A DNA stretch of 49,945 nucleotides, from positions 1 to 49,945 of the forward strand of contig JASJQH010006893.1 in assembly GCA_040143965.1 (NCBI GenBank), in the 5' to 3' direction. Below, piece by piece: positions 8,625 through 49,509 of the stretch. Both the position numbers and the translations under genes were made by a program. The stretch is from Basidiobolus ranarum (Eukaryota). Each line of letters begins with the position of its first letter. Positions within the stretch are counted from its first letter, which is position 1. The notes under the pieces were generated by a model. The model did no database searches, had not been told where the DNA came from, and saw nothing but the letters and a program-made list of their open reading frames with translations.

Positions 8625-9250
8625 ATTCCACTTCGGAGAAGTAAGTTTGGCTGTCAGTCATGTCAAGATGAAATTTGAATTTTCTGTTTCATTTTTCTTT
8701 GAAGTACTATAAAAGTTTTCTCTCATATATTTTATATAAATTGCACAAAGAACTTCAAACCCGAACCCCAAGTAGTTGTACCTAATTGTGTGAAAACGCT
8801 AGTTTCCTCTTTGAATACACCAATTTGATATTTCCATAGACTGAAGGATATGTATAACAATTCATAAGTTATTGATATTTAATTACTTTTAAACCAGGAT
8901 GATTTGTCAGAAATTTTATTTTGCTGCTTGTATTTACTCTCATGTTTAGTGAAATTTTTTGTCCCTAATATACATCGGAGTATCGATATTTCTGTGTCCC
9001 TTGTGTTTTATAATGTTTCGAACTCATGTGCGAAATCTGTTGGTGCGGAAGATACGGTACAGTTCATAATCATATTTCAAGAAAGTAAATTTGTATTAGT
9101 TTCTCAAACGTTAATACTACATGCGCTGCTTATTGTGATGCTAAATCTAAGTGCATTTGAGCTATTTCATATACATATAGTAGTCAATATTTATTAACGA
9201 TTCAAACTCACATAATTCCAATTTAATTTAGAATAGGGAACCTTTCAAAC

Positions 9251-10735
9251 GTGCGAACTCTATCTGTTACTAGACCGCATCCAAATAATGAGGACGCACG
9301 GGGACTTGATTTGTTTAAATTATCAGAGAAATTGAGTAGTTACTTAACCCCTCAAGATTCCATTCCAGATGATGCACAATCTGCTTGGACGGATTCTGAC
9401 ACCAAGAACAACACTGACTTGAATGTCGAAAGTTTTCAACGAAACGATGATTCGTCATCTCATGTAGAGACCTGCATCGGGAATACCAACACAGACGAAG
9501 TAAAAACCACAACTCTTATTAAGAAGTCATCTGGAAATGACAATAATAATAACACAGATTCGGAAATGAAATTTGAGATTAAGGATATTGAGCTACCTCA
9601 ATTCTGGAATGAAGCCTCTCGCAGAGTGGCACTTTATCGAGTAATTCTTAACTTGGAAAAAAAGGAAATAGCACTAAAGCCGAAAATAATACCCAAACTC
9701 GCGACTAATACAACTCAGCTCAAGAGAAGTCACAAAAAAAAGGTAATAAACGAGGCTGACAGACATAAAGTTTATTTGGAAGTAATCGAGCTAATAGACG
9801 CCGAGAAAGAATTTTTGAGTAGAGCTAGCCGAACGTTATCACCTTTTGCCCATATACAAAAGCAAGAACTTGAGGCTAACAATATAAAGCCACCGGATCG
9901 AGCAGTCATTAGAGGCCATCTAGATTCTTTAAGGGTATTCGAATTACAGGAAAGGTGCCGATCCTACGGTATTAGTATGGGGGGTAGTCGAGCAGATATT
10001 GTTGAGCGTATAGAGAATTTTATATTTGACTTTATTGGCGACAGAAAAGGAATCCCTCAAAATATCATTTCCATTGACATTGGATATCGGAATCTCGCTT
10101 ACATACACATAGACTCTTCGCTGAGAATTCTTGACTGGCGTCGGATTGATCTGAATGTCCCCGATTCATACGACCCTGTAAAATATGCTCAAGTTGTTAA
10201 TGATTTTGTAGAGACACTCTCAAACCGCGGTGTAGGAATATATATTTTAGAGCGGCAGAGTTTGCGTCACAGCCCCACTACGATGTTTGAGGGAGTTATT
10301 CGGTCTAATTTAGTGGAAGCACTGATAATCGGGTCTTTACACGGTCGAGGCTACTCTATTGCTTCTATCAATCCAGCTACTATTAGTAGCTACCTCAAGT
10401 CGGAAAAGGGATCTACATTGCTTCGAAATTCAGGAATAGTGTATACCGACCGAATCAACAAGCTGAAGCTGCTGGCCCCCTTACTCTCGGGAAAGCAGTA
10501 TAATTCGAAACGGTATACGGTGAAGAAAACCAACCATGTAGGTGTCGTAAAGCATTTGCTTAAGACCAAGCAAACAATTCAATGCCCTGACCATCTCGAA
10601 GAGATGTTTTTGACTGAGAAAAAGAAAGATGATCTGGCTGACTGTCTTATCCAGTCATTGGTGTGGTATGAATGGCAACACACAAAGGTACAGGACATTT
10701 ATGCTCAAATTCTAAATGTCAAGTCGCCGTTGTAA
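9251..10735 (+). CDS. CCE1: Mitochondrial Holliday-junction resolvase (Ydc2/Cce1 family) with SAP domain; the 5' end probably lies in a short upstream exon
   Basis: SAP motif LDSLRVFELQERCRSYGISMGGSRADIVERI; RuvC-like catalytic motifs IISIDIGYRNLAY, YILERQ and KKDDLADCLIQ. The ORF opens at GTG just after candidate acceptors (AG at 9230-31 or 9235-36), so the true ATG is uncertain. Confidence 0.88.
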   Translation: MRTLSVTRPHPNNEDARGLDLFKLSEKLSSYLTPQDSIPDDAQSAWTDSDTKNNTDLNVESFQRNDDSSSHVETCIGNTNTDEVKTTTLIKKSSGNDNNNNTDSEMKFEIKDIELPQFWNEASRRVALYRVILNLEKKEIALKPKIIPKLATNTTQLKRSHKKKVINEADRHKVYLEVIELIDAEKEFLSRASRTLSPFAHIQKQELEANNIKPPDRAVIRGHLDSLRVFELQERCRSYGISMGGSRADIVERIENFIFDFIGDRKGIPQNIISIDIGYRNLAYIHIDSSLRILDWRRIDLNVPDSYDPVKYAQVVNDFVETLSNRGVGIYILERQSLRHSPTTMFEGVIRSNLVEALIIGSLHGRGYSIASINPATISSYLKSEKGSTLLRNSGIVYTDRINKLKLLAPLLSGKQYNSKRYTVKKTNHVGVVKHLLKTKQTIQCPDHLEEMFLTEKKKDDLADCLIQSLVWYEWQHTKVQDIYAQILNVKSPL

Positions 10736-12383: not shown

Positions 12384-13032
12384 ATGGTGGGTTTCAATTG
12401 ATTAGAGCACTTAGATAGAATTAAGGCGTATCCTTAGAGTTCATCCAAGCATCCATTACCAATTAGCATACACACTAACTTGAAGCATTTCTATTTAGTC
12501 CGCCGAAGCTTCTACTACCGCTACCAACTCTATGCGCGAGTTGCGTATCGAGAAACTTGTTCTCAACATTTGCGTTGGTGAATCTGGTGATAGACTTACC
12601 AGAGCCGCCAAGGTTTTGGAACAATTGACTGGTCAAACTCCTGTCTACTCCAAGGCTCGTTATACCGTCCGTTCTTTCAGCATTCGTCGTAACGAAAAGA
12701 TTGCTGTTCACACTACTGTCCGTGGTCCTAAGGCCGAGGAAATTTTGGAACGTGGTTTAAAGGTCAAGGAATACGAACTTAAGAAATCCAACTTCTCTTC
12801 CACCGGAAACTTCGGTTTCGGTATCCAAGAACATATCGATTTAGGTATCAAGTATGATCCTTCCATCGGTATTTATGGTATGAACTTCTTCGTTGTCTTG
12901 GGTCGTCCCGGATTCCGTGTTAGCCGCAGAAAGAGATGCCAATCCAAGGTTGGTTTCTCCCACCGTGTCACCAAGGAGGAGACCCAAAAGTGGTTCAAGC
13001 AGAAGTACGATGGTATCCTCTTGAACAAATAA
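12384..13032 (+). CDS. RPL11: 60S ribosomal protein L11 (uL5)
   Basis: [37 protein letters not shown]...[23 protein letters not shown]. Exon 1 is ATG only (12384-86), followed by intron 12387-12498. Confidence 0.98.
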
Positions 13033-16444: not shown

Positions 16445-17922
16445 CTAAGAAGAAGCAGCGGCAGAATACCAACGAATGGATTTATCTTCAGAGACCGAAG
16501 CGATTTTGTTACCCTCTTCATTCCAGGCAACACCCCAAACTTGATCAGTATGGTGATCCATAGTGTCAACACACTGTCTAGCTCCCAAATCCCAAATCTT
16601 CACTTTCTTGTCACTGGATCTGCGAATGGGAAAAATTAGAAATGGCAGAGCATGCATTAGTCGTAGGAAATAAATACCCCGAGGCAATATGAACACCGTC
16701 AGCACTAGCAGCAACACTCAATACCCAAGAGGAATGACCTGACAACGATGCGAAAATGTTTCCATGTTGACTGCGCATTGTTAAGGATAAACAATCTTCA
16801 AAAAAGAATAATTAAAAATCACAAAGTTCTCTGAAGGATACACATCGTATATATTGATTCTTTTGTCATCAGAGCCGGATATCAACATCGAGGAGTCTTG
16901 TGTGAAGGCAACGGAACGTACTGTCATCGCGTGTCCTATATTTTCCTGATCAATTTCTGCTTATAGCTACGAAAAACTAAAAACGAATATTACCAGCTAA
17001 AGAGTGAAGTAATTTCCCGGTCTCAACGTCAAAAACGTGGATACTTCCGTTTTCAGACCCACATGCAACATATTGCCCATTGGGGCTCTGGAGTGCGAGT
17101 CAAAGATTACAAACGCTGCATAGATTAAGAATGAAAGAGAATAAAACTACAAAAAGGATACATAGGCCACACACATAGCAAATTTGCCACGAGTTTCCAA
17201 AGTGGTAATCTTAGCTTCTGAATCGACAGACCAGATATTAATGTTACCCGCATGACTACCAGCAGCGATTTGGTTTCCAGAAGGCGAGAATTTTACTGTC
17301 CAAGCTTCAACTAAGACCGGCCAAGGAATTAGACATATGGTTGATATTAGGAAATAATAACTATTTCTCACCAGGACCAGCATTGATGCTTTTATACAGA
17401 CTACCGTTTTCAAGATCCCAAATTTTAATTTGATTATCAAGTGAGGTAGACACGGCGCCTAAACGAAATCTTAGTATTTGGGCTTGCTATATAGTTTATG
17501 AAGAAACGCTTACGAGTTCCAGTCACATCTACGTCAACTGAAACGACACCTAGAAGATGGCCTGGGAGTGTGTGAGTTAATTCTCCGGTATTTCCGTCCC
17601 TGAAGGAAGCTTTCAAGTTAATAACAAGGGGAATCCTCCATTGAACGATCACAGATCACTATTTACCAGCATTTTATGGTGCTATCAACAGAACCGGTCA
17701 CAATACGATTGGTATTCTTTCCCCATGCGACGGACCAGATCCCATCTTCATGAGCTATATAAAATCAAGATCAATATCGAAAATCGAAGCAACAAGTCGT
17801 CAAGATTTCGCTATTACCATCATTATTAGCAAGTGTACAAGAGTAAAGGATAGCCTGTTGAAAAAAGGATTAGTTGTGTTTCTTCAAGTACCTAAATGGA
17901 AGTTGCTATAAATGTCTACCAT
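16445..17922 (-). CDS. SKI8: WD40 protein SKI8/WDR61 (Rec14)
   Basis: Spliced [12 protein letters not shown]...[79 protein letters not shown]. Exon 1 is ATG only (17922-17920). Confidence 0.9.
16771..16841 (-). other. U12-type (minor spliceosome) GT-AG intron in SKI8
   Basis: 5' splice site GTATCCTTC; branch point TCCTTAAC (16787-16780) 9 nt before the 3' end; no polypyrimidine tract. Splicing restores the frame INIYDV|QHGN. Confidence 0.9.
17088..17161 (-). other. Second U12-type GT-AG intron in SKI8
   Basis: 5' splice site GTATCCTTT; branch-point-like TCTTTGAC (17106-17099, one mismatch to TCCTTRAC) 11 nt before the 3' end. Splicing gives MCVAY|SPNG. Confidence 0.8.
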
Positions 17923-18519: not shown

Positions 18520-19878
18520 ATGAGAGAAATTCTTCAACTTCAAGCTGGTCAGTGCGGTAACCAAATTGGTTACAAATTCTGGGAAACTATCTCCTCTGAA
18601 CACGGTATTGACGGCTCTGGTGCTTACACTGGTGACACTGACGCTCAGCTCGAAAGAATAAATGTCTATTACAACGAAGCTGCTGCTGGAAAGTATGTTC
18701 CTCGCGCTGTTTTAGTTGACTTAGAACCAGGAACTATGGACAACATTCGTGCTTCACCTTTGGGTCAGCTCTTCCGCCCTGATAATATGGTATTCGGACA
18801 AAGTGGCGCTGGTAACAACTGGGCCAAAGGTCACTATACTGAAGGTGCTGAATTGGTTGACTCAGTTCTGGATGTAGTCCGTAAGGAAACTGAAAATTGT
18901 GACTGCCTTCAAGGCTTCCAAATCACCCACTCTCTTGGAGGAGGAACTGGTTCTGGCTTAGGAACTCTTCTTATTTCCAAAATTCGGGAAGAATATCCTG
19001 ACCGCATGATGTGTACTTTCTCTGTAGTTCCGTCGCCTAAAGTTTCCGACACTGTTGTTGAGCCCTATAATGCTACCCTCTCCGTTCATCAACTCGTTGA
19101 AAACTCTGACATGACTTTCTGTATCGATAATGAGGCTCTATATGATATTTGTTTCCGTACATTAAAGCTTTCCAACCCTACATACGGGGACTTGAATCAT
19201 CTCGTCTCCTCAGTCATGAGTGGTACTACCACATCGCTTCGTTTCCCTGGTCAGTTAAACTCTGATTTAAGAAAGACCGCTGTCAACATGGTGCCTTTCC
19301 CTCGTCTTCATTTCTTTATGGTCGGATTTGCACCATTGACTGCTCGCGGTTCCCAGGATTTCCGTGCCATGTCTGTAGCCGAACTTTCTCAACAAATGTT
19401 TGACTCCAAGAATATGATGGCTGCCTCTGATCCCCGTCATGGACGTTATCTTACTTGTGCTGCCATGTTCCGTGGTCGCGTGTCGATGAAGGAAGTGGAT
19501 GAACAAATGGTCAACGTTCAATTGAAGAATTCCAGCTATTTTGTTGAATGGATACCCAACAACATTAAGACTTCTCTTTGTGATATCCCACCTACTAATC
19601 TAAAAATGGCGGTCACCTTCCTTGGAAATTCCACCGCTATTCAAGAGTTATTCAAACGTGTGAATGAGCAATTCACTGCTATGTTCCGCCGTAAAGCTTT
19701 CCTACATTGGTACACTGGTGAGGGTATGGATGAGATGGAGTTTACTGAAGCCGAGTCTAACATGAATGATTTGGTTTCTGAATATCAACAATACCAAGAT
19801 GCCACTGTGGAAGATGAACTCGAATATGAAGAGGAGGGCACTATGGAGGAAGAGTATGTTGCTGAGGAAGAATACTAG
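18520..19878 (+). CDS. TUB2: Beta-tubulin (intronless, divergent)
   Basis: MREI start, GGGTGSG motif, [35 protein letters not shown] and an acidic C-terminal tail. Confidence 0.99.
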
Positions 19879-21038: not shown

Positions 21039-23377
21039 ATGTTGAGTCGTGCATCCTGCGTTCATCCTGTTGTGTCAAGCTCTGCTAGAAGAGGCACTCT
21101 ACAACTATCCAATAGAAGAAGTAATTTAAACTTTTCTACCAACCTTCAGCGCTATTCTACCAACAATTGGAAAGGTATTTATATTGTTGACTTTCTTTCG
21201 TCAATCCTTTCAAATAACTAACATACCTTTTATTCCACTCTATAAGGGAGGCTCAATTTTTCCAAAAATACAGAAAATAATGCTAAAGAGGGCATTGAGA
21301 GTTTGGCTCCCAACACTCAATTGTCCCCAAAAGCAATAGTTAAAGATGCCCCAAACACAGAAATCCAGAGCCAATCCAAATTCTCTACTAAAATTAAGCG
21401 TGCCTTAAGTAAGTACTCAATATTTTGTATAGATTATGTTTCGAAAGTTTTCTAATGGCTTCTGTTAGATGCTGCCAAAATTGCCCAGGCTAAAAAACAG
21501 GCACCTGTTGTATATTTAGAGAAACCATATTTTCGACATCTTCTTTCCTCCTCCTCCTCTTCTGGTTCTTCTGGTAATACCTCTGGTGGAACACCACCCT
21601 TTAACTTTGTTCAAAACGAAACGTATTCTCAGTTTGAAACTGCGGGCTCAGGGCATGAAAATAATCCAGAAAATAGTGGTTCAAACGATCATATTTGGAG
21701 TGCAGTTTTAACAAGTCCAAAATCGGTATGTTATACGATCTCTATTGATGCTTATAGACCGGCATCTCAAGTGCAAAATTGAAATTATAGATAACAAAAC
21801 ACTTAGACGAGTATGTTATTGGACAAGAAAGAGCCAAGAAGATACTTTCAGTAGCGGTATTTAATCACTACAGCCGTGTAAGAGCCAATATACAGCAGCA
21901 AATGCAACAAAGGCCAAACGTTGGAGTTGAGGAGGAGCCAGGTAACTCCGGCATGTTACTAAATCAATATTGCTACGTCGATACTAAAGCCATTACCGCC
22001 TATAGCACGCCCTGCACCGGTCTCTTCTAATTATTCTAGTAACAGTCAATCTTGGGTTAACCCTAGCACCAATAATTCAGAATCTACTACATCCAGCAGT
22101 GATCCAGGACCCAAAGTACCTGAAATGAGAAATCTGCCCATCTTCGACAAGAGCAACGTTTTACTTCTGGGACCTACAGGCTCTGGTCAGGATTTTACTT
22201 TGATGGTGTACTCTTGCTTAAAACCATTAACAATCAAATAACATTATATTACATAGGCAAGACTCTACTGGCACGCACATTGGCCAAAATCCTTAAAGTT
22301 CCATTTTCTATGTCTGATGCCACTCCTTTTACGCAAGCTGGCTACGTAGGTGAGGATGTTGAACTAGTAATACAACGCCTATTACAGGTAAATATATATT
22401 ATATTTTCAATGTGTTCTATTGATGATATATGACTAACTTCGCTCCGTTGAACTAGAACTGCGATTTTGATGTGAAAAAAGCTGAACAAGGAATAGTCTT
22501 CATTGATGAGATTGACAAAATTGCCAAAAAAGCCGACACAATGTCCATGTCTAAGGATGTTTCAGGAGAAGGCGTTCAACAAGCTCTATTGCGTATGCTT
22601 GAGGGAACAGTGGTAAACGTAACAGACAAAACAGGGGCAGCTTCGTCTAGCCATAAAAACCGGTTTGGTCCTGGAGGACCTGGATCAGGAGGTAAAGGCG
22701 ATGTATATGCTGTAGATACTAGTAATATTCTATTTATCTTGAGTGGTGCCTTTATTGGGCTTGACAAGATTGTAATAGACCGCGTGGCCAAAGGATCGAT
22801 TGGATTTGGAGCCGTCATCCATGGGTCTGATAGCTCATCTCTTCCCACATTGCCCGGATATATGATGGCTAGCACGGCAAAGCAACAAATCTTAGATTTG
22901 ATAGATCCAGTAGACTTAATCAAATTTGGTTTGATTCCCGAATTTGTTGGAAGACTCCCGGTAGTCGCTAGCGTTGCGCAACTTGATGAAGCTGCCTTGG
23001 TGCGTGTTCTAACAGAACCCAGAAACTCACTTGTCAAGCAATATGAATCATTGTTCGAATTGAACAAAGTCAACCTGAAGTTTTCCAACTCCGCGCTGCA
23101 TGAAATTGCTAAACAAGCCATTGAGAAGCAAACTGGTGCTCGAGGACTGCGTCGTATAATGGAGAACCTATTACTCGATCCTATGTACGATGCACCGAAT
23201 TCATCTATCAAAAACGTTCTTGTTGATAGTGACTCGGTGTTACAAAAACGGAACCCACTCTACTTCTCTCGCGGACAAGACAATGATTTGGAGAGAGCAC
23301 TTGAAGAAGATGATAATACATTCACCACAAATTTGGCTGCCAAAGAAGAAGGAAAACAGGGAATTGCATTCTCATAA
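21039..23377 (+). CDS. CLPX: Mitochondrial ClpX AAA+ chaperone (MCX1/CLPX), 7 exons
   Basis: Presequence-like N-terminus; [23 protein letters not shown]; Walker [16 protein letters not shown]; pore loop [11 protein letters not shown]; Walker [26 protein letters not shown] loop; TGARGLR. Confidence 0.95.
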
Positions 23378-24056: not shown

Positions 24057-24156
24057 CACCACCAACTGTGGTTCTTTTCATTATTTATTTTAGCAGCTCA
24101 GTTGGATTATCTTGTATTTGTTTCTTTAGACTACTTGGCAATATTTCAATACAACC

Positions 24157-25140
24157 ATGACTTTCGATTCTATTGACGACTCCAGTTCCTCTGTAATGTC
24201 CACCCCTACCTTATCTACACCACCGGAGTTTTCTAGTGACCCTTTCCCCTCCATTTACTTCTCCAAAGAATTCCCTCTGACCGCTTACTCCACCAAAACC
24301 AGTATTGTCTCACAAGAAAAGTCACTGCGTGTTGAATGTCAAGCTAGAACTCGTATTCCCACTCCATATGGCGAATTCTTCCTGCACTTGTACAAAAATA
24401 ATCACGATTCTAAAGAACACTTGGCCATTGTGTTTGGCGACGATATAAGAAGTACTACTCTAGACGCAGTTCAAGAGGGAGAAACCGAAACCGATAGAAT
24501 TATTCGTGGTGCTTATCATGGTCGTCTAAACCCTAATAAGACCAACCAAGTATATCGGGAAACAAGTTCAACTTCTCCCCTACCACCTCTTGTTCGTATT
24601 CATTCCGAATGTTTCACCGGTGAAACAGTTCATTCTGTTCGTTGTGACTGTGGTGACCAACTCGAGCAGGCTATGCGTCTCATGCATGATGAGGGACGTG
24701 GTGTGGTCGTTTATCTTCGTCAAGAAGGACGTGGTATAGGTTTATTGGAAAAAATCAAAGCATATAATCTTCAGGATTTGGGATATGATACCGTTTCTGC
24801 CAATGTTGCCCTTTCTCATCCACCAGACCTTCGTACATACGATGTTGCTTGTGAAATTCTTAAAGACTTGAATATACCGACCATCAGATTACTTACTAAC
24901 AATCCGGATAAAATTGAACAACTCGAAGAGGGCGGACTCAAGGTAACCGAAAGAGTACCCATGATCCCTAAAGAATGGTCTGTTCAGTGTGAAACACAAA
25001 TTGCACAAAAACGAAAGAACGATGATGGCTACACAGAAGTTGATACTTATCTGAAAACCAAAGTTGAACGGATGAGACATTTGATCGATATCCCCACCAT
25101 TCCTAACGTTGTCACTGACCCATTGTCAAAGAAAGATTAA
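24157..25140 (+). CDS. RIB1: GTP cyclohydrolase II (riboflavin biosynthesis)
   Basis: VRIHSECFTGE, SVRCDCGDQL (Zn ligands), YLRQEGRGIGL, AYNLQDLGYDTV, RLLTNNPDK. Confidence 0.97.
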   Translation: MTFDSIDDSSSSVMSTPTLSTPPEFSSDPFPSIYFSKEFPLTAYSTKTSIVSQEKSLRVECQARTRIPTPYGEFFLHLYKNNHDSKEHLAIVFGDDIRSTTLDAVQEGETETDRIIRGAYHGRLNPNKTNQVYRETSSTSPLPPLVRIHSECFTGETVHSVRCDCGDQLEQAMRLMHDEGRGVVVYLRQEGRGIGLLEKIKAYNLQDLGYDTVSANVALSHPPDLRTYDVACEILKDLNIPTIRLLTNNPDKIEQLEEGGLKVTERVPMIPKEWSVQCETQIAQKRKNDDGYTEVDTYLKTKVERMRHLIDIPTIPNVVTDPLSKKD

Positions 25141-43100: not shown

Positions 43101-46100
43101 TTATCGATGAACACTTTCTCCTACGTCGTTGACCCAGATGCAACTCCATCCTTTTGGGGTGAATTCTTCGCCAGAATCCCAGCGACGCCACGCTTCCAAA
43201 TATCCTTTTTCTAGGTTTCGTACCCATCGAGGTGTATCAAATAATGGTGAATTATCTCGCTTTAAGAACAAATCACGACGAAGGTCCATCAAGATACCAC
43301 GTCCGATACGATAAAAAGATGATTGTAATTGTTGCTGGGTAATCCCCCGCAAAAATTCGAACATCTGATGAGGCTGTTGTAGTTGTGACTCATTATCTAC
43401 AACGTATTCATAACTAAGATCTTGAGCGTACTTCACTGCAATATCTTCGTATTCCAATTCAGAAGAAACTACCATTTTATCACCATGCCCAGTAGCATAA
43501 GCTATACTAGCAGCGACACGGGAGCAAAGCTTGTGACGATGACGAGGGAATGTGAGAATAGGTGTACCAGACCATAAAATATCACATCCAGTTGTATGTC
43601 CATTACATTCAGGAGTGTCTAGAAACAAATCAGCCACGCGTCCACGATGAATGTGAACACTTTTAGGGGCGACGTCGGTAAAGATGACGCGTGATGCTAC
43701 TTCTTTACCAGCATACTCCTCAGCAGTTCGAAGTAAATGAGTCTCACCTGCGGCAGGGAATCTCAATAACCAGAGGATAGAATTCGGAACACGAGACAAA
43801 ATTCTAAGCCACACTTTGAAAATTGATGGATCGATTTTGTATAATTGGTTGAAATTAGCAAAGATAACCATATTATCGTGTAAATGCGGGAATACTTCAC
43901 GTCGCATTATCCACCGCTTCTTTTGCTCCTGTCTCCACAGTGACTCTGAACAGGTAACGGCTAAGGAACTCGTAGATTTTGCATCTCCATCCTCATCTCT
44001 AAATCCTTGCCTATGGTCGTTAACGAAATATGAATGTGGCATATAAATCATCTTTTCGGTATAAACCCATTCTTCACTAATCTCTTCAGGATCCATATCT
44101 CCGATGGAAATTCCCTCAAGCTCATCAATATCATTGCAGTCGGACTCTTTTGATGGATCAACCTGCTCATTCGCTTCGTTATGCATCCTCCAGCGCTCAC
44201 AAGCTACCAATTCTGGAGGACAAACAATGGGATCCGAGATTAAATAATCGCACCATCCAGCTCCTAAACTTCCGGCAAATCCCATGTATGCCATGAGAAT
44301 CGGTGCAGGTCTAGCGGCAAATACCTCATTACGAGCTCCCTTTGTATAACCATTCAGGTTAATCAAGATATGAATACCATCTTGAACGATACGTTCGGTA
44401 ATAGCTTGTGTAGACCAAGTAGAAACATTCAGAAATACTTGCGCTTCTTGCTCAATTTTAGCACGATAGGGTGATTGATCATCGGGGGTAGTAGCATAGC
44501 AGTAGACCATAAATTTGCTGTGATCATGAAGACCAAATACTGACTGCATTAAATGGGATAATGGGTGGTTGTTAAAATCGGAAGATACGTATCCTATCTT
44601 GATTAATGGTGAAGGAGGAGCAGGAGGTGGATAAACTGTAGCCGGTAACCAAGGGTAATTTAGCACACTGTGCGAGATTCGGATTGCATTACGATGAGAG
44701 ATTAAACGAATTTGACGAGGAGATAACGGATACGTAAAAGTGTGGAACGGAAGAACTGTTGGGGCTGAAGGAGCACTCATTGGAGGGAGAGTTGGTCTTT
44801 GATACCTGTTGACTGCTTCATTGGCGCTGACCTTATAGCCACATTTATACTGATCAACATACCAGCGTCTTTGAACGATTCTCATACAACGCTCAACGAT
44901 TCGAACTAACCAGCTTCCCTCATTACGATGTGCTGCCTCATTGTCATTTTTTCCAATAGAAAGTTGGCCTTCAATAGTACTCATCGAGAAAATCCAATCT
45001 GCAATTTTAGATCTAAGTGTATCGGTAAGGCATCTAACTCCAAACGCATTAGAGATCATGTCGACAACAGTATCTTGAAAAGCGTTATTACGAAGGACTA
45101 CTTCACGACCCCATTCAAGACCTTCAGTTAATTGCTTATCCACAATCCGACTAACCTTATCCATCATCCAACCAGATGGATCGGAGAATCCTTTCTTTTG
45201 AGAGCGGACAAGAATACCTCCAGCTCCCTTTTCTAACTCAACTACACAATTTGCAGGTCCTCCACGGCCTCTCCAATCACATACACCGCCTAAAGCATTC
45301 ACTAATCCACATATAGCTTCACCAAAGTCAGGATTAACTTCAACAGCACGCATATACCATTGAACACTATCCTGCACCCTGCCCATATCTTTAATAGCAT
45401 TTCCCAGATTGGCAAGAGCGATATCAAATCGGGGATTGCACTCCACAGCCTTTTCGTACATACGTACGGCATCTGGTAAGCGGCCCATATCCTTCAGCAA
45501 AGATCCAAGGTTTGTGTACAAATGAGGGTGTTGAGAATCTAGTGAAAGGCCATATGTATAGTACTGATACGCTAATGCAGGTCCATTCAAAGGCGTAGGG
45601 CAATTGGATGTAGGAGCTAACACTCCAACAGTACTAAGTAATATTCCAAGATTGTTGCATGTTGAAGGCGAGGGATATAGAGAGAGAGAAAGATAGTAAA
45701 GAGGGAGTAACATTTGTAAAGGCGCAGAACTGCTTTTGTCCTGGTACAATTTGGCTAGTGTAAGCAAGATGTTGGAACATGTTTGATTGATTTGCTGCCT
45801 GCTTGTGGTAGACGGTACATAGCTTGGTGTTTTCTGCTCGTGAACATTGGTAAGTCCAGGAAGAATTCCATCGGATTTAGCAAAGATGGAATTACACAGT
45901 TGAACAGCTTGTTCAGGAGCTAACAACAGCATAGGGAGCGTAGCAAGGTTCCCTTTCTCGATAGTTGATATCCCTGTAGTTTGAGCAATAGAAGCAACTA
46001 CCTCAACTAAGGTACAACCTCCGAATACGATTTCCAATGCGCGTTCGTATTCCTTTTTGGCACCACAACAATCACCCATAGCATAAAGCAAATTACCCTT

Positions 46101-48233
46101 AGTATAAAGTAAGTTTTGCACGCGAGGTGTGTGAATAATCGCGATGCCCAAATTTTTTGGGGATAAAGGAGCGCTCTGATCGACTTTGGAGAATACATGA
46201 GACTCCACAAAGTTGCAGACCTCCATTGCCTCTTTGTAACGAGATTGCTTGCTAGTTCCAACCTGAGGATTTTTGGCATGTTGATTACATAAGACGCCAA
46301 GAAGATTCTCTATAGCATCCCAGTAACCTGGGCGAAGTTTAATGGCGCGCCACCACCAATTCTCCGCTTCAGAACAACGGCCTGTACTTCTAAGAGTAGT
46401 TCCGATGTTACTCATGGCTTCAACATAATTAGGATCGATTTCAAGGATTTTAGAGTTATAGTAGAGCGATTTGGCGATATCATCACGAGAGAAATAGACA
46501 CAAGCGAGCAGTAGGAGAACCGGAAGATGTTTTGGGTGTAATTCATGAAGACAATGAAGCATTGGAAGCAAATTACTATCTTTTGGTGCTGACGAGTAAA
46601 GGTTATGTGCATGCGCAAGAATTTGATCCCGTATTTCCTTTGATCTAGCATCTACAACAGATATCCTCGTGCCAGGAACAACGTGTGGACCATGACTAGT
46701 AAGTGGATCATAAAAGGGGAGCTTTGTGTTGAAAATTCCGGAAAAATGAGAGCTAGTATTACACAATGTGCTAGAAGTTGAATCGTTACACCTTCCATTA
46801 CAATGATTTGATACAAAATGGTTTTCGTTCGGAGTGGCAGAGTTTACATTGTACAACCCCACAACATTTGGCTGTTTACATGGCAGATACCGAATTTGAC
46901 TAGGTTCAATGGAATTTAGCTCGCTTCTACTATAGTTTTGGTTGCGAACCTTGCCATTAGAACGACGATCGTCGTATTGGTTAGAGGTGTTTGGATAGTA
47001 CGTAGTGGATTGCAAAAAAAGATCGTTTTGGCGGGGGAAAGTTTGATGACTTCGAACATTCGTTGGATGCGAGTATCCAAATGCAGAATCACCGGCGAGA
47101 TAGCTCGAATTGTATGAGTGGCCACCATTTTGATCATGGAGATGATAAATGTTGGGGTTTGGCTGATGCGTTGGTAAATGATTCCCATTGAAATTTGCAT
47201 AGGCTGGATCTTGCTGATAGTACAAAAGAATGGTAGGGGAAGGCGGCGGAAGCATCATATGCTGAAATGATGGTTGATAGTCACCACGCGGTATCCCAGA
47301 ATGTTGAAAGTCTGGGTCGTTCGCAAGATTACTTTGAGCAGTACCAAATAACGTGCTAGTGTCGATCCAAGGATCTACAAGATTAGCGGCAGTAGCCATA
47401 AAATGCCCATAATTTTCCTGATTATAGCTAGGAATATACGAGGGTAACATCTGAGTGGGAAGTTGCTTATTAAATGAGGGCCCATACGTATGACTTTCGC
47501 GAGATAATTTGTTACTACGAATTTGCTTGTTCTTGCCAATCGACTGGTCATTTATGTTCGAATTTCTACGAAAGAGTTGCGGATCTATGCGTGTGTGATT
47601 AGGAAATGAGTCAGAGTTTTGAACATGGCGAGATGATTGCTTTGCATGATAAGGTTCTTGATCTGAAGCGAAGAATGGTTTTTTAGGGGGTGGTGGCGGA
47701 GAAATACACTCGAAATCTACCAAGGTACTCGTAGGCTTGTTAGAATAAGGATCTTTACGATCTTTCCAAGTTTGTTGTGGAGCGTTTTGGTTCACTGGAT
47801 ACGACCGAGTAGATTGGCTGTTTATAGATAGACCTGTACTTATAGAGTGTCTGTTGTTGAATGAAGGTGCTGGGAAAGGCATGTTCGTGTTGTTTGAAGA
47901 TAATCTGTCACGCGTGGTGTTCATATGCAAAGTGTTGTTTGAATGATGACTGGGATAGCTTTGAATAAGGTCTGCATGAGTCTTTAGATGGCGAAAAGGT
48001 TGTGCATTTACTTCTCCAAATTTCGGTACTTCTATAGTACTTGTTGAACCACTAAATGGGAAACTCATGTGCCGTCCACCGAAATTCCGACGAGTGGTAG
48101 GACCTGCACTATAGAGGCAGTTCAAATATTGGAGTTCGCTTTCGTTGTAATCTGAAGGTGGGACTTTTTGGATTGCGTAGTGTGGTTGATCATTCGAGAA
48201 GAAATTAGCGAAATCGTTTTGTTGAATCAACAT
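43101..48233 (-). CDS. OGT: O-GlcNAc transferase (GT41, OGT/SEC type) with TPRs and a long disordered N-terminus
   Basis: TPRs ([38 protein letters not shown]); catalytic [72 protein letters not shown]. Single 1710-aa ORF. Confidence 0.96.
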   Translation of the reverse strand: [1710 protein letters not shown]

Positions 48234-49509
48234 GTTATAAGTACGTATTTGGTGATAAGTACTCTACACTATTGGAAGTAAGGCTATGTTCAATCAAGTT
48301 CGTCTAGTAGCAAGGTCGTTAAATGTAGGATAAGTATAGTAACTTAGATTATCCAGCAACCCTGACGTGAAATCGAGCGATAATGTAAAGAAAACAAGTT
48401 GGATATATACAACTATAAAAACAAGGGAAAGAACTTCAAAAAATAAACGAGTCAAAGAACAAAAAGAATGGCAGTGACTATCTGTACAATGAAATTAGTC
48501 CAGGTTGAGAAAATAGTACAAAACGTCTATAGATATAAAATCTAAGCAAGCGCCTGTAATGTTGGACTCTTTAGTAAGTTGCAAGAGAGGAAAGCATAAA
48601 AAATGAAAGTCTACCTCACAGCTTGTAAATATTGACTTCTTGATACCCACCAGACCAATTATAGCAACAAGAACTGGTATCTTACTAACGATATCCTTAT
48701 ACGTGCTCCAGATTTCCTGGTTGCAGCGGCAGGCTTGGGTCAATATATATCCTTCAGTATGTCTTTTCAGCTCTCGAAGATAATTTATATAGCGCTGAAT
48801 AGAATAGATATATACGTAATATATTTGAATTTGAGCTTATTATATAAGAATAGTCTTAATGAAATCAATAGATACACTAATCGATGATATAAAAAACTAC
48901 AGTGGGTATACGAATATATATATATTAATTATTGATAGTAGAGTAAATTATATTCTAAAGCTATAACACATACTACTAGAAGATTACATGTAGCCTTTAT
49001 TTGCTATTGGAAAGTTGCATGCCCGCTAATACCGTTATAACTACTGCTACCACAACTACAACCATTACCTCAGCTCAGTTAGTTGCAATGACAAGGAATC
49101 TGCAGAGAATCCGCGAGTATTCGGAGTCCATCCAAGTCCATTAATCAGATTATATCTCACCAAATATAGATATGATTCGTTGAATAATAGAAACAAATCA
49201 GTAGCCTGTGATGATGTAAGCCAGGACCCGATGATGGCACCAAACCAAGCATATTACGCCTTTATTGAAGATGAATGGGGCTAGGACTACATTCTACTCT
49301 GATTTTGGAATTAGGAACTGTCAATACTAGGTTTGAAAGTTTTAGTGGTCTTAAGAAAGATCATCTGTATTCAGGTAGACTATAAGTAGGCAATAGGTTT
49401 AGCCTTACGTTAGCACCTAGCTTTAGGATGAGCACACAAGTATGTATAATGAAGACAAAGTATACATCACAAAGAAGAGCCATACATAATAAAGACAGTC
49501 GTCAAAGTG

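Follow-up and report, generated by a model that had tools for sequence, protein, structure and literature searches.

Two probable U12-type introns in a SKI8/WDR61 gene of Basidiobolus ranarum

The SKI8/WDR61 gene and its introns

The DNA analysed in this work, called the window below, is a stretch of 49,945 nucleotides (nt) of Basidiobolus ranarum (assembly GCA_040143965.1, contig JASJQH010006893.1, positions 1 to 49,945). Its minus strand holds a SKI8/WDR61 gene, and two of the nine introns of this gene, introns 6 and 8, very probably belong to the GT-AG subclass of U12-type introns, which are removed by the minor spliceosome. The gene model, which was built from reading frame and homology, has ten exons and nine introns, and its coding sequence (CDS) of 906 nt would encode a WD40 protein of 301 amino acids (aa). 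The coding part and those of its segments that are needed below are listed in the order in which they are transcribed:

16445..17922, minus strand: coding part of SKI8/WDR61 (SKIC8, Rec14), frame and homology model
17922-17920, minus strand: ATG (first exon, ATG only), the least certain part of the model
17855..17919, minus strand: intron 1, U2-type, GTAGAC..CAG, 65 nt, starting right behind the ATG; its boundary is the least certain one and is supported by the N-terminal alignment and the comparable layout of RPL11
17755..17817, minus strand: intron 2, U2-type, GTAATA..TAG, 63 nt
17600..17666, minus strand: intron 3, U2-type, GTAAAT..CAG, 67 nt
17459..17513, minus strand: intron 4, U2-type, GTAAGC..TAG, 55 nt
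17311..17371, minus strand: intron 5, U2-type, GTGAGA..TAG, 61 nt
17162..17310, minus strand: exon 6, 149 nt, 5' of intron 6; translation compared with human WDR61
17088..17161, minus strand: intron 6, probable U12-type, GT-AG subclass, 74 nt, phase 0, between Y150 and S151 (..CVAY before and SPNG.. after the intron)
16994..17087, minus strand: exon 7, 94 nt, between introns 6 and 7
16936..16993, minus strand: intron 7, U2-type, GTAATA..TAG, 58 nt
16842..16935, minus strand: exon 8, 94 nt, 5' of intron 8
16771..16841, minus strand: intron 8, probable U12-type, GT-AG subclass, 71 nt, phase 2, inside codon V213 (..IYDV before and QHGN.. after)
16678..16770, minus strand: exon 9, 93 nt, 3' of intron 8
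16620..16677, minus strand: intron 9, U2-type, GTATTT..CAG, 58 nt, with CTAAT 16 nt from its end
16445..16619, minus strand: exon 10, 175 nt including the stop codon; WD40 repeat PF00400

The position of intron 1 directly after the ATG is matched by the layout of the RPL11 gene of the same window, which supports the model. The seven U2-type introns vary in their donors, and their lengths range from 55 to 67 nt.

The identity of the gene as SKI8/WDR61, which had been proposed in a preliminary description of the window, is supported by several comparisons. Exon 6 alone matched residues 108-156 of human WDR61/SKIC8 in a single stretch (E 3.3e-16). In the alignment the exons followed each other in colinear order along six homologs; MAFFT put one short exon on another WD repeat. 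A profile made of the exons and homologs matched, with its positions 2-295, residues 5-303 of human WDR61/SKIC8 (PDB 6gmh chain W, 3ow8), that is end to end (E 5e-123), and the sole higher score for this profile came from a 577-residue repeat protein, which was matched in five separate stretches. The best among 272 proteins compared with the spliced model was the WDR61 of Entomortierella (P0213; 59.5% identity, 1-300 vs. 1-303), equalled by the unnamed P0222 (likewise 59.5%) and followed by the WDR61 of Haplosporangium (P0224; 57.9%) and the 'Ski complex subunit Rec14' of Umbelopsis (P0230; 53.9%). SKIC8 proteins are seven-bladed WD40 proteins of about 300 aa, and SKIC8 is the WD40 subunit common to the SKI and PAF1 complexes. 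By orthology, the product would be expected to have a role in the SKI complex, and in the PAF1 complex as well.

Splice signals and junctions of introns 6 and 8

The consensus of U12-type donors is RTATCCTT, and that of the branch site is TCCTTRAC, its branch A usually being found some 10-20 nt before the 3' splice site. Both introns begin with the same octamer, GTATCCTT, which agrees with this consensus in eight of eight positions (+1 to +8), and both carry a sequence similar to the branch consensus TCCTTRAC close to the 3' end:

17154..17161, minus strand: intron 6, 5' splice site GTATCCTT, followed by TTT; the exon ends in ..TAT
17099..17106, minus strand: intron 6, branch motif TCTTTGAC, 7/8 to TCCTTRAC; predicted branch A at 17100, 12 nt to the 3' end
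16834..16841, minus strand: intron 8, 5' splice site GTATCCTT; the exon ends in ..TGT
16780..16787, minus strand: intron 8, branch motif TCCTTAAC, 8/8 to TCCTTRAC; predicted branch A at 16781, 10 nt to the 3' end

With the flanking exon bases, the boundaries read tat, then GTATCCTTTT ... AATCTTTGACTCGCACTCCAG, then agc for intron 6, and tgt, then GTATCCTTCA ... TTATCCTTAACAATGCGCAG, then tca for intron 8. The coordinates given for the two introns in the preliminary description (16771-16841 and 17088-17161) proved exact, and its donor and branch motifs were found again, on the minus strand. The gap between branch motif and AG is merely 9-11 nt in both introns. U12-type introns typically have no polypyrimidine tract in this gap; the pyrimidine fraction at -17..-3 was 0.73 and 0.60 in the two introns and fell into the range of the U2-type introns of the gene (0.33-0.80). 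The preceding exons end in ..AT (intron 6) and ..GT (intron 8), thus neither has AG at -2/-1; position -1 is T in both cases, and G in six of the seven U2-type introns. An AG at the exon end was described as a sign of 'minor-like' rather than true minor introns in the part of Olthof et al. 2024 (PMC11347168) that deals with this class. In donor, branch motif and exon end, introns 6 and 8 agree with GT-AG U12-type introns, and the earlier claim of U12-type signals is well supported.

If the two introns are processed as their signals suggest, the rigid GTATCCTT donor would be paired by the U11 small nuclear ribonucleoprotein (snRNP) and later by U6atac. U12 would pair with TCCTTAAC in intron 8 and with TCTTTGAC in intron 6, so that the adenosine of the branch point, 10-12 nt before the 3' AG, is bulged out; where TCTTTGAC has T instead of C, a G-U pair would remain possible. 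Excision would be completed by the U4atac/U6atac.U5 tri-snRNP, and the remaining seven introns of SKI8 would be left to the major spliceosome. These steps of minor splicing are established knowledge; their application to introns 6 and 8, with splicing at the junctions given and dependence on the minor spliceosome, we infer from the sequence.

The donor motif is enriched in the window. RTATCCTT occurs 13 times vs. 4.72 expected, a number reached in none of 100 shuffled sequences, and two of these 13 sites are the intron donors. The octamer GTATCCTT itself was found four times (1.80 expected; 13 of 100 shuffles reached four). The window was then scanned on both strands for [AG]TATCCT[TC] with a branch motif (at most one mismatch) not more than 150 nt downstream and 9-21 nt before AG or AC. 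Among the 18 [AG]TATCCT[TC] sites only the donors of SKI8 introns 6 and 8 were followed by such a motif. Other candidates were rejected as donors. The site at 8851 on the minus strand has a branch motif, with one mismatch, at a distance of 278 nt only. For the nine ATATCCTT sites, either no branch motif is present or the site overlaps an open reading frame, in sense or antisense orientation. The fourth copy of GTATCCTT, at 12428 on the plus strand, falls within the U2-type intron 1 of RPL11 and does not serve as a donor; among the introns traced, the donor is thus confined to the two of SKI8, as the preliminary description had remarked.

Excision at the boundaries of introns 6 and 8 yields the open CDS of 906 nt. 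In three-frame translation both introns, if left unspliced, run into stop codons in the frame of the gene, and use of an alternative GT located two bases upstream of intron 8 leads to a stop codon as well. The junction of intron 6 was ungapped in all 15 aligned homologs and that of intron 8 in 12 of the 15. The exceptions at intron 8 were two Neocallimastigomycota-like proteins with two extra residues just 3' of the junction and one chytrid model, which is without the 16 preceding residues. Six transcript-like metagenome contigs (L001, L006, L008, L010, L011 and L016) aligned over both junctions in a single block, with 48-54% identity. Introns 6 and 8 can be taken as real intron sites also because the orthologous genes of other organisms are interrupted at the same codon and in the same phase (see below).

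Several observations weigh against the U12-type assignment. In random windows generated by a first-order Markov model (n=1500) the mean count of the motif pair was 0.434, and two or more pairs, as against the two observed, were present in 6.6% of the windows; by bare count the motif pair is only weakly significant. Minor introns tend to avoid phase 0, according to two recent surveys (PMC10639083, PMC11347168), and it is in this phase that intron 6 lies. YTRAY motifs are found 10-18 nt from the end of the U2-type introns of SKI8, too, so that the branch distance does not discriminate between the two types. Among the proteins listed by the searches there was no annotated or transcript-derived SKI8 of Basidiobolus that could serve as an independent model of the junctions. 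To these points must be added the U2-type donors of the orthologous introns, which are described in the next section. What lifts the pair above chance is that both copies are located at exon boundaries, the only in-frame ones, of one and the same gene, in two of its nine introns, and that orthologs in other eukaryotes carry introns at these very sites.

The chance level of about 7% for the bare motif pair is also what could be said for a wrong gene model, in which the two stretches would not be introns, or the gene would be a decaying copy, and the motifs would have arisen by chance. The uncertain first exon and the lack of an identical public protein in the protein searches point in the same direction. 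A profile search of proteins gave no close relative of the SKI8 model among the 120 matches listed, and in a search with the last exon, which returned longer proteins, the best SKI8-like match had 69% identity. We consider a wrong model very unlikely, because the unspliced stretches meet stops in the frame of the gene, splicing gives a full-length, gap-free SKI8, and orthologs have introns at the same sites.

It is also conceivable that introns 6 and 8 are 'minor-like' or hybrid introns, which look U12-type and are removed by the major (U2-type) spliceosome of a fungus with loose donors. Beyond the GT, the U2-type donors of SKI8 are indeed very variable, so pairing with U1 seems relaxed, and TTAAC and TTGAC fit the loose U2 branch consensus YTRAY, matches to which occur at similar distances in the other introns. 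However, such looseness would hardly produce the full GTATCCTT octamer in two of nine introns: by a rough estimate from base composition, ATCCTT at +3 to +8 is expected in about 0.001 of GT introns, and two cases among nine introns with a probability of about 4 in 100,000. Both introns, in contrast to the U2-type ones, contain the branch motif in its extended form with TCCTT/TCTTT, and neither is preceded by AG at -2/-1, the mark of minor-like introns in Olthof et al. 2024 (PMC11347168). The same paper and that of Larue and Roy (PMC10639083), in their parts on this genus, report a minor spliceosome and hundreds of such introns for Basidiobolus. For these reasons a hybrid nature of the two introns appears improbable to us, and we prefer to regard them as true U12-type introns.

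Orthologous introns and the origin of the U12-type

To compare intron positions, metagenomes were scanned with the SKI8 alignment. The scan yielded 589 stretches, of which 426 were confirmed, and 80 loci were kept. Position A denotes the site of intron 6 (after ..AY, phase 0) and position B that of intron 8 (phase 2, in the V/A/I codon after ..YD). It must be noted that this is an unrooted comparison, in which the taxa of the contigs are given by similarity. Introns at these positions were found in the following contigs:

L076 (Mortierellaceae-like): donor GTAAGA at A, GTATGT at B
L005 (animal-like): donor GTAAGT at A, no intron at B
L002 (animal-like): donor GTAAGT at A, no intron at B
L003 (unplaced): donor GTGCGT at A, no intron at B
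L017 (unplaced): donor GTACGT at A, GTACGT at B
L012 and L015 (unplaced, near-identical to each other): at A, V-C-G in frame, corresponding to GTNTGY; donor GTACGT at B
L004 (animal-like): at B, a pyrimidine-rich, U2-like 3' end only

All seven contigs with an intron at position A have a U2-type donor there (six lineages, L012 and L015 being near-identical), and the four readable donors at position B are U2-type, too. Where the 3' ends of the orthologous introns are visible, they are pyrimidine-rich. Contigs L007/L009, L013, L014, L018, L019, L021 and L023 lack the intron at A, at B or at both positions. Per exon, L076 is at least 92% identical to Mortierellaceae and has nearly its whole exon layout in common with the SKI8 of the window; L004, L002 and L005 are 75%, 61% and 53-55% identical, respectively, to named animal SKIC8 proteins. 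None of the 80 loci came from Basidiobolus, the best match being that of the Mortierellaceae-like L076, with 69% over the last exon. At the SKI8 exon boundaries of the 80 loci no RTATCCT donor was seen: a scan for RTATCCTY gave 29 donor-like sites, four of which had a downstream branch motif, and none was at a SKI8 exon boundary.

In animal-like, Mortierellaceae-like and protist contigs introns are thus located at the same codon and in the same phase as in Basidiobolus, and on this comparison both positions are ancient, common to fungi, animals and other eukaryotes. The donors differ; none of the U2-type introns elsewhere begins with RTATCCT. Of the earlier suggestion of ancient retained positions, the age of the positions was therefore borne out by the common codon and phase; an equally ancient minor type was not, as the 80 loci contained no U12-type ortholog.

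The U2-type intron of L005 at position A has been read through in a public protein model. This intron, L005:622-675, is 54 nt long, in frame and of the form GTAAGT...TTTCAG, and P0010 (344 aa) contains 18 spurious residues (VSHSQN...ILFQ) which come from reading through it.

Two histories can be envisaged for introns 6 and 8. They may be ancient minor introns, which were kept in Basidiobolus and turned into major introns elsewhere, or ancient U2-type introns at both positions may have become U12-type in the Basidiobolus lineage, by switching from major to minor during a lineage-specific rise of minor introns. The removal of the introns would be the same in both cases, only their history would differ. 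We lean towards retention, and regard switching as a serious alternative of lower probability; a mixed history takes up the rest.

Switching is favoured by the fact that all readable orthologous donors, seven at A and four at B, are U2-type. The names 'WDR61' and 'SKIC8' do not occur in the supplement of Olthof 2024 (PMC11347168), which holds an orthology table of human minor introns. U2-type introns are found also in the animal-like contigs L002 and L005, and a U2-like 3' end in the animal-like L004; animals keep the minor spliceosome. The presumed Ensembl gene identifier of human WDR61 is likewise absent from the Olthof 2024 supplement. Phase 0, in which intron 6 lies, is typical of major introns. 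The sections of Larue and Roy (PMC10639083) on ancestral states reconstruct a low density of minor introns for the ancestor of Zoopagomycota, in contrast to the high density in Basidiobolus, and in the corresponding section of Olthof 2024 (PMC11347168) a major origin was inferred for 15-20% of human minor introns. If switching did take place, it would help to account for the wealth of minor introns in Basidiobolus, the greatest among fungi, despite the poor ancestor of its phylum.

On the other side, conversion is generally taken to proceed almost only from minor to major, the minor signals being richer in information, as stated where Larue and Roy (PMC10639083) discuss its direction; against this default, two gains in one gene would be remarkable. 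Lineages without a minor spliceosome must show either a U2-type intron or none, so that most of the sampled contigs are uninformative in this respect, and the taxa of the contigs are, as mentioned above, known from similarity only. The intron of L076 orthologous to intron 8 (L076:3726-3826) starts with GTATGTCCTT, and 10-11 nt separate CATTTGAC from its AG. It is possible that a former GTATCCTT donor became the U2-type GTATGT by two extra bases, in which case this intron would be a fossil of minor-to-major conversion, and position B of L076 would point to an ancestral minor intron. Weighing these arguments, we think it rather less probable, although by no means far-fetched, that at least one of the two introns is secondarily minor, i.e. 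derived from a U2-type ancestor that was converted in the Basidiobolus lineage.

Because both positions are old and every readable ortholog is of the major type, SKI8 offers, with two introns in a single gene, a compact test case for the disputed question whether minor introns only decay to major ones or can arise from them as well.

The minor spliceosome of Basidiobolus and the neighbouring genes

In Basidiobolus, an early-diverging genus of fungi, one would expect the minor spliceosome to be functional, as minor introns and genes of minor small nuclear RNAs (snRNAs) have been published for it. Larue and Roy 2023 (PMC10639083) put the number of predicted minor introns in B. meristosporus at 249, which is 0.554% of all introns and the highest density in fungi; Olthof et al. 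2024 (PMC11347168) arrived at 237. For the snRNAs of the same species the latter study lists two U11 and one U6atac genes with high confidence, and single putative hits for U12 and U4atac (PMC11347168, Table S7; the column order of the counts sheet of this table was inferred from its coordinates sheet). The window itself contained no Rfam family at the gathering score, and no gene for a minor-spliceosome protein was seen among its reading frames.

That the window belongs with this genus is illustrated by the intronless beta-tubulin gene (18520-19878, plus strand) located 1.6 kb from SKI8. Its product shows 92% identity with a protein of B. ranarum and 93% with proteins of B. meristosporus, followed among the named groups by Mortierellaceae with 86%. 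The SKI8 introns resemble the catalogued minor introns of B. meristosporus, which have the GTATCCTT donor and TCCTTRAC near the 3' end, are short, and lie in old housekeeping genes. They differ from these in being a separate record, in a window whose tubulin is 92-93% identical to named Basidiobolus proteins. Introns 6 and 8 of SKI8 are thus of a known kind, expected for the genus, and the original observation was correct and describes a fairly ordinary find. Its further suggestion, that the two introns exert a rate-limiting control on SKI8, is speculation.

In the full-text literature searched, no paper joins WDR61 with 'minor intron'; the databases introns.info and MIDB may already list both introns. 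A fungal genus rich in minor introns gains with SKI8 one more gene, and one with two such introns. For annotators it may be relevant that no matching public protein was found in the protein searches, and that this gene may need U12-aware gene calling.

The other genes recognized in the window include the following:

9227-10732, plus strand: Ydc2/Cce1-type mitochondrial resolvase with SAP domain
12385-13023, plus strand: RPL11/uL5
18520-19878, plus strand: beta-tubulin, intronless
22457-23374, plus strand: fragment of a ClpB/Hsp104-like AAA ATPase
24130-25137, plus strand: GTP cyclohydrolase II
43104-48263, minus strand: O-GlcNAc transferase-like open frame

In RPL11/uL5 a U2-type intron of 112 nt (12388-12499; GTGGGT...TTTAG) begins immediately behind the ATG (12385-12387). 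The region 43104-48263 on the minus strand is a very long open frame (1720 aa between stops), in which TPR repeats and a domain of glycosyltransferase family 41 (E 3.8e-118) were recognized; judged by these domains, it represents an O-GlcNAc transferase-like gene, which is free of introns in that stretch.

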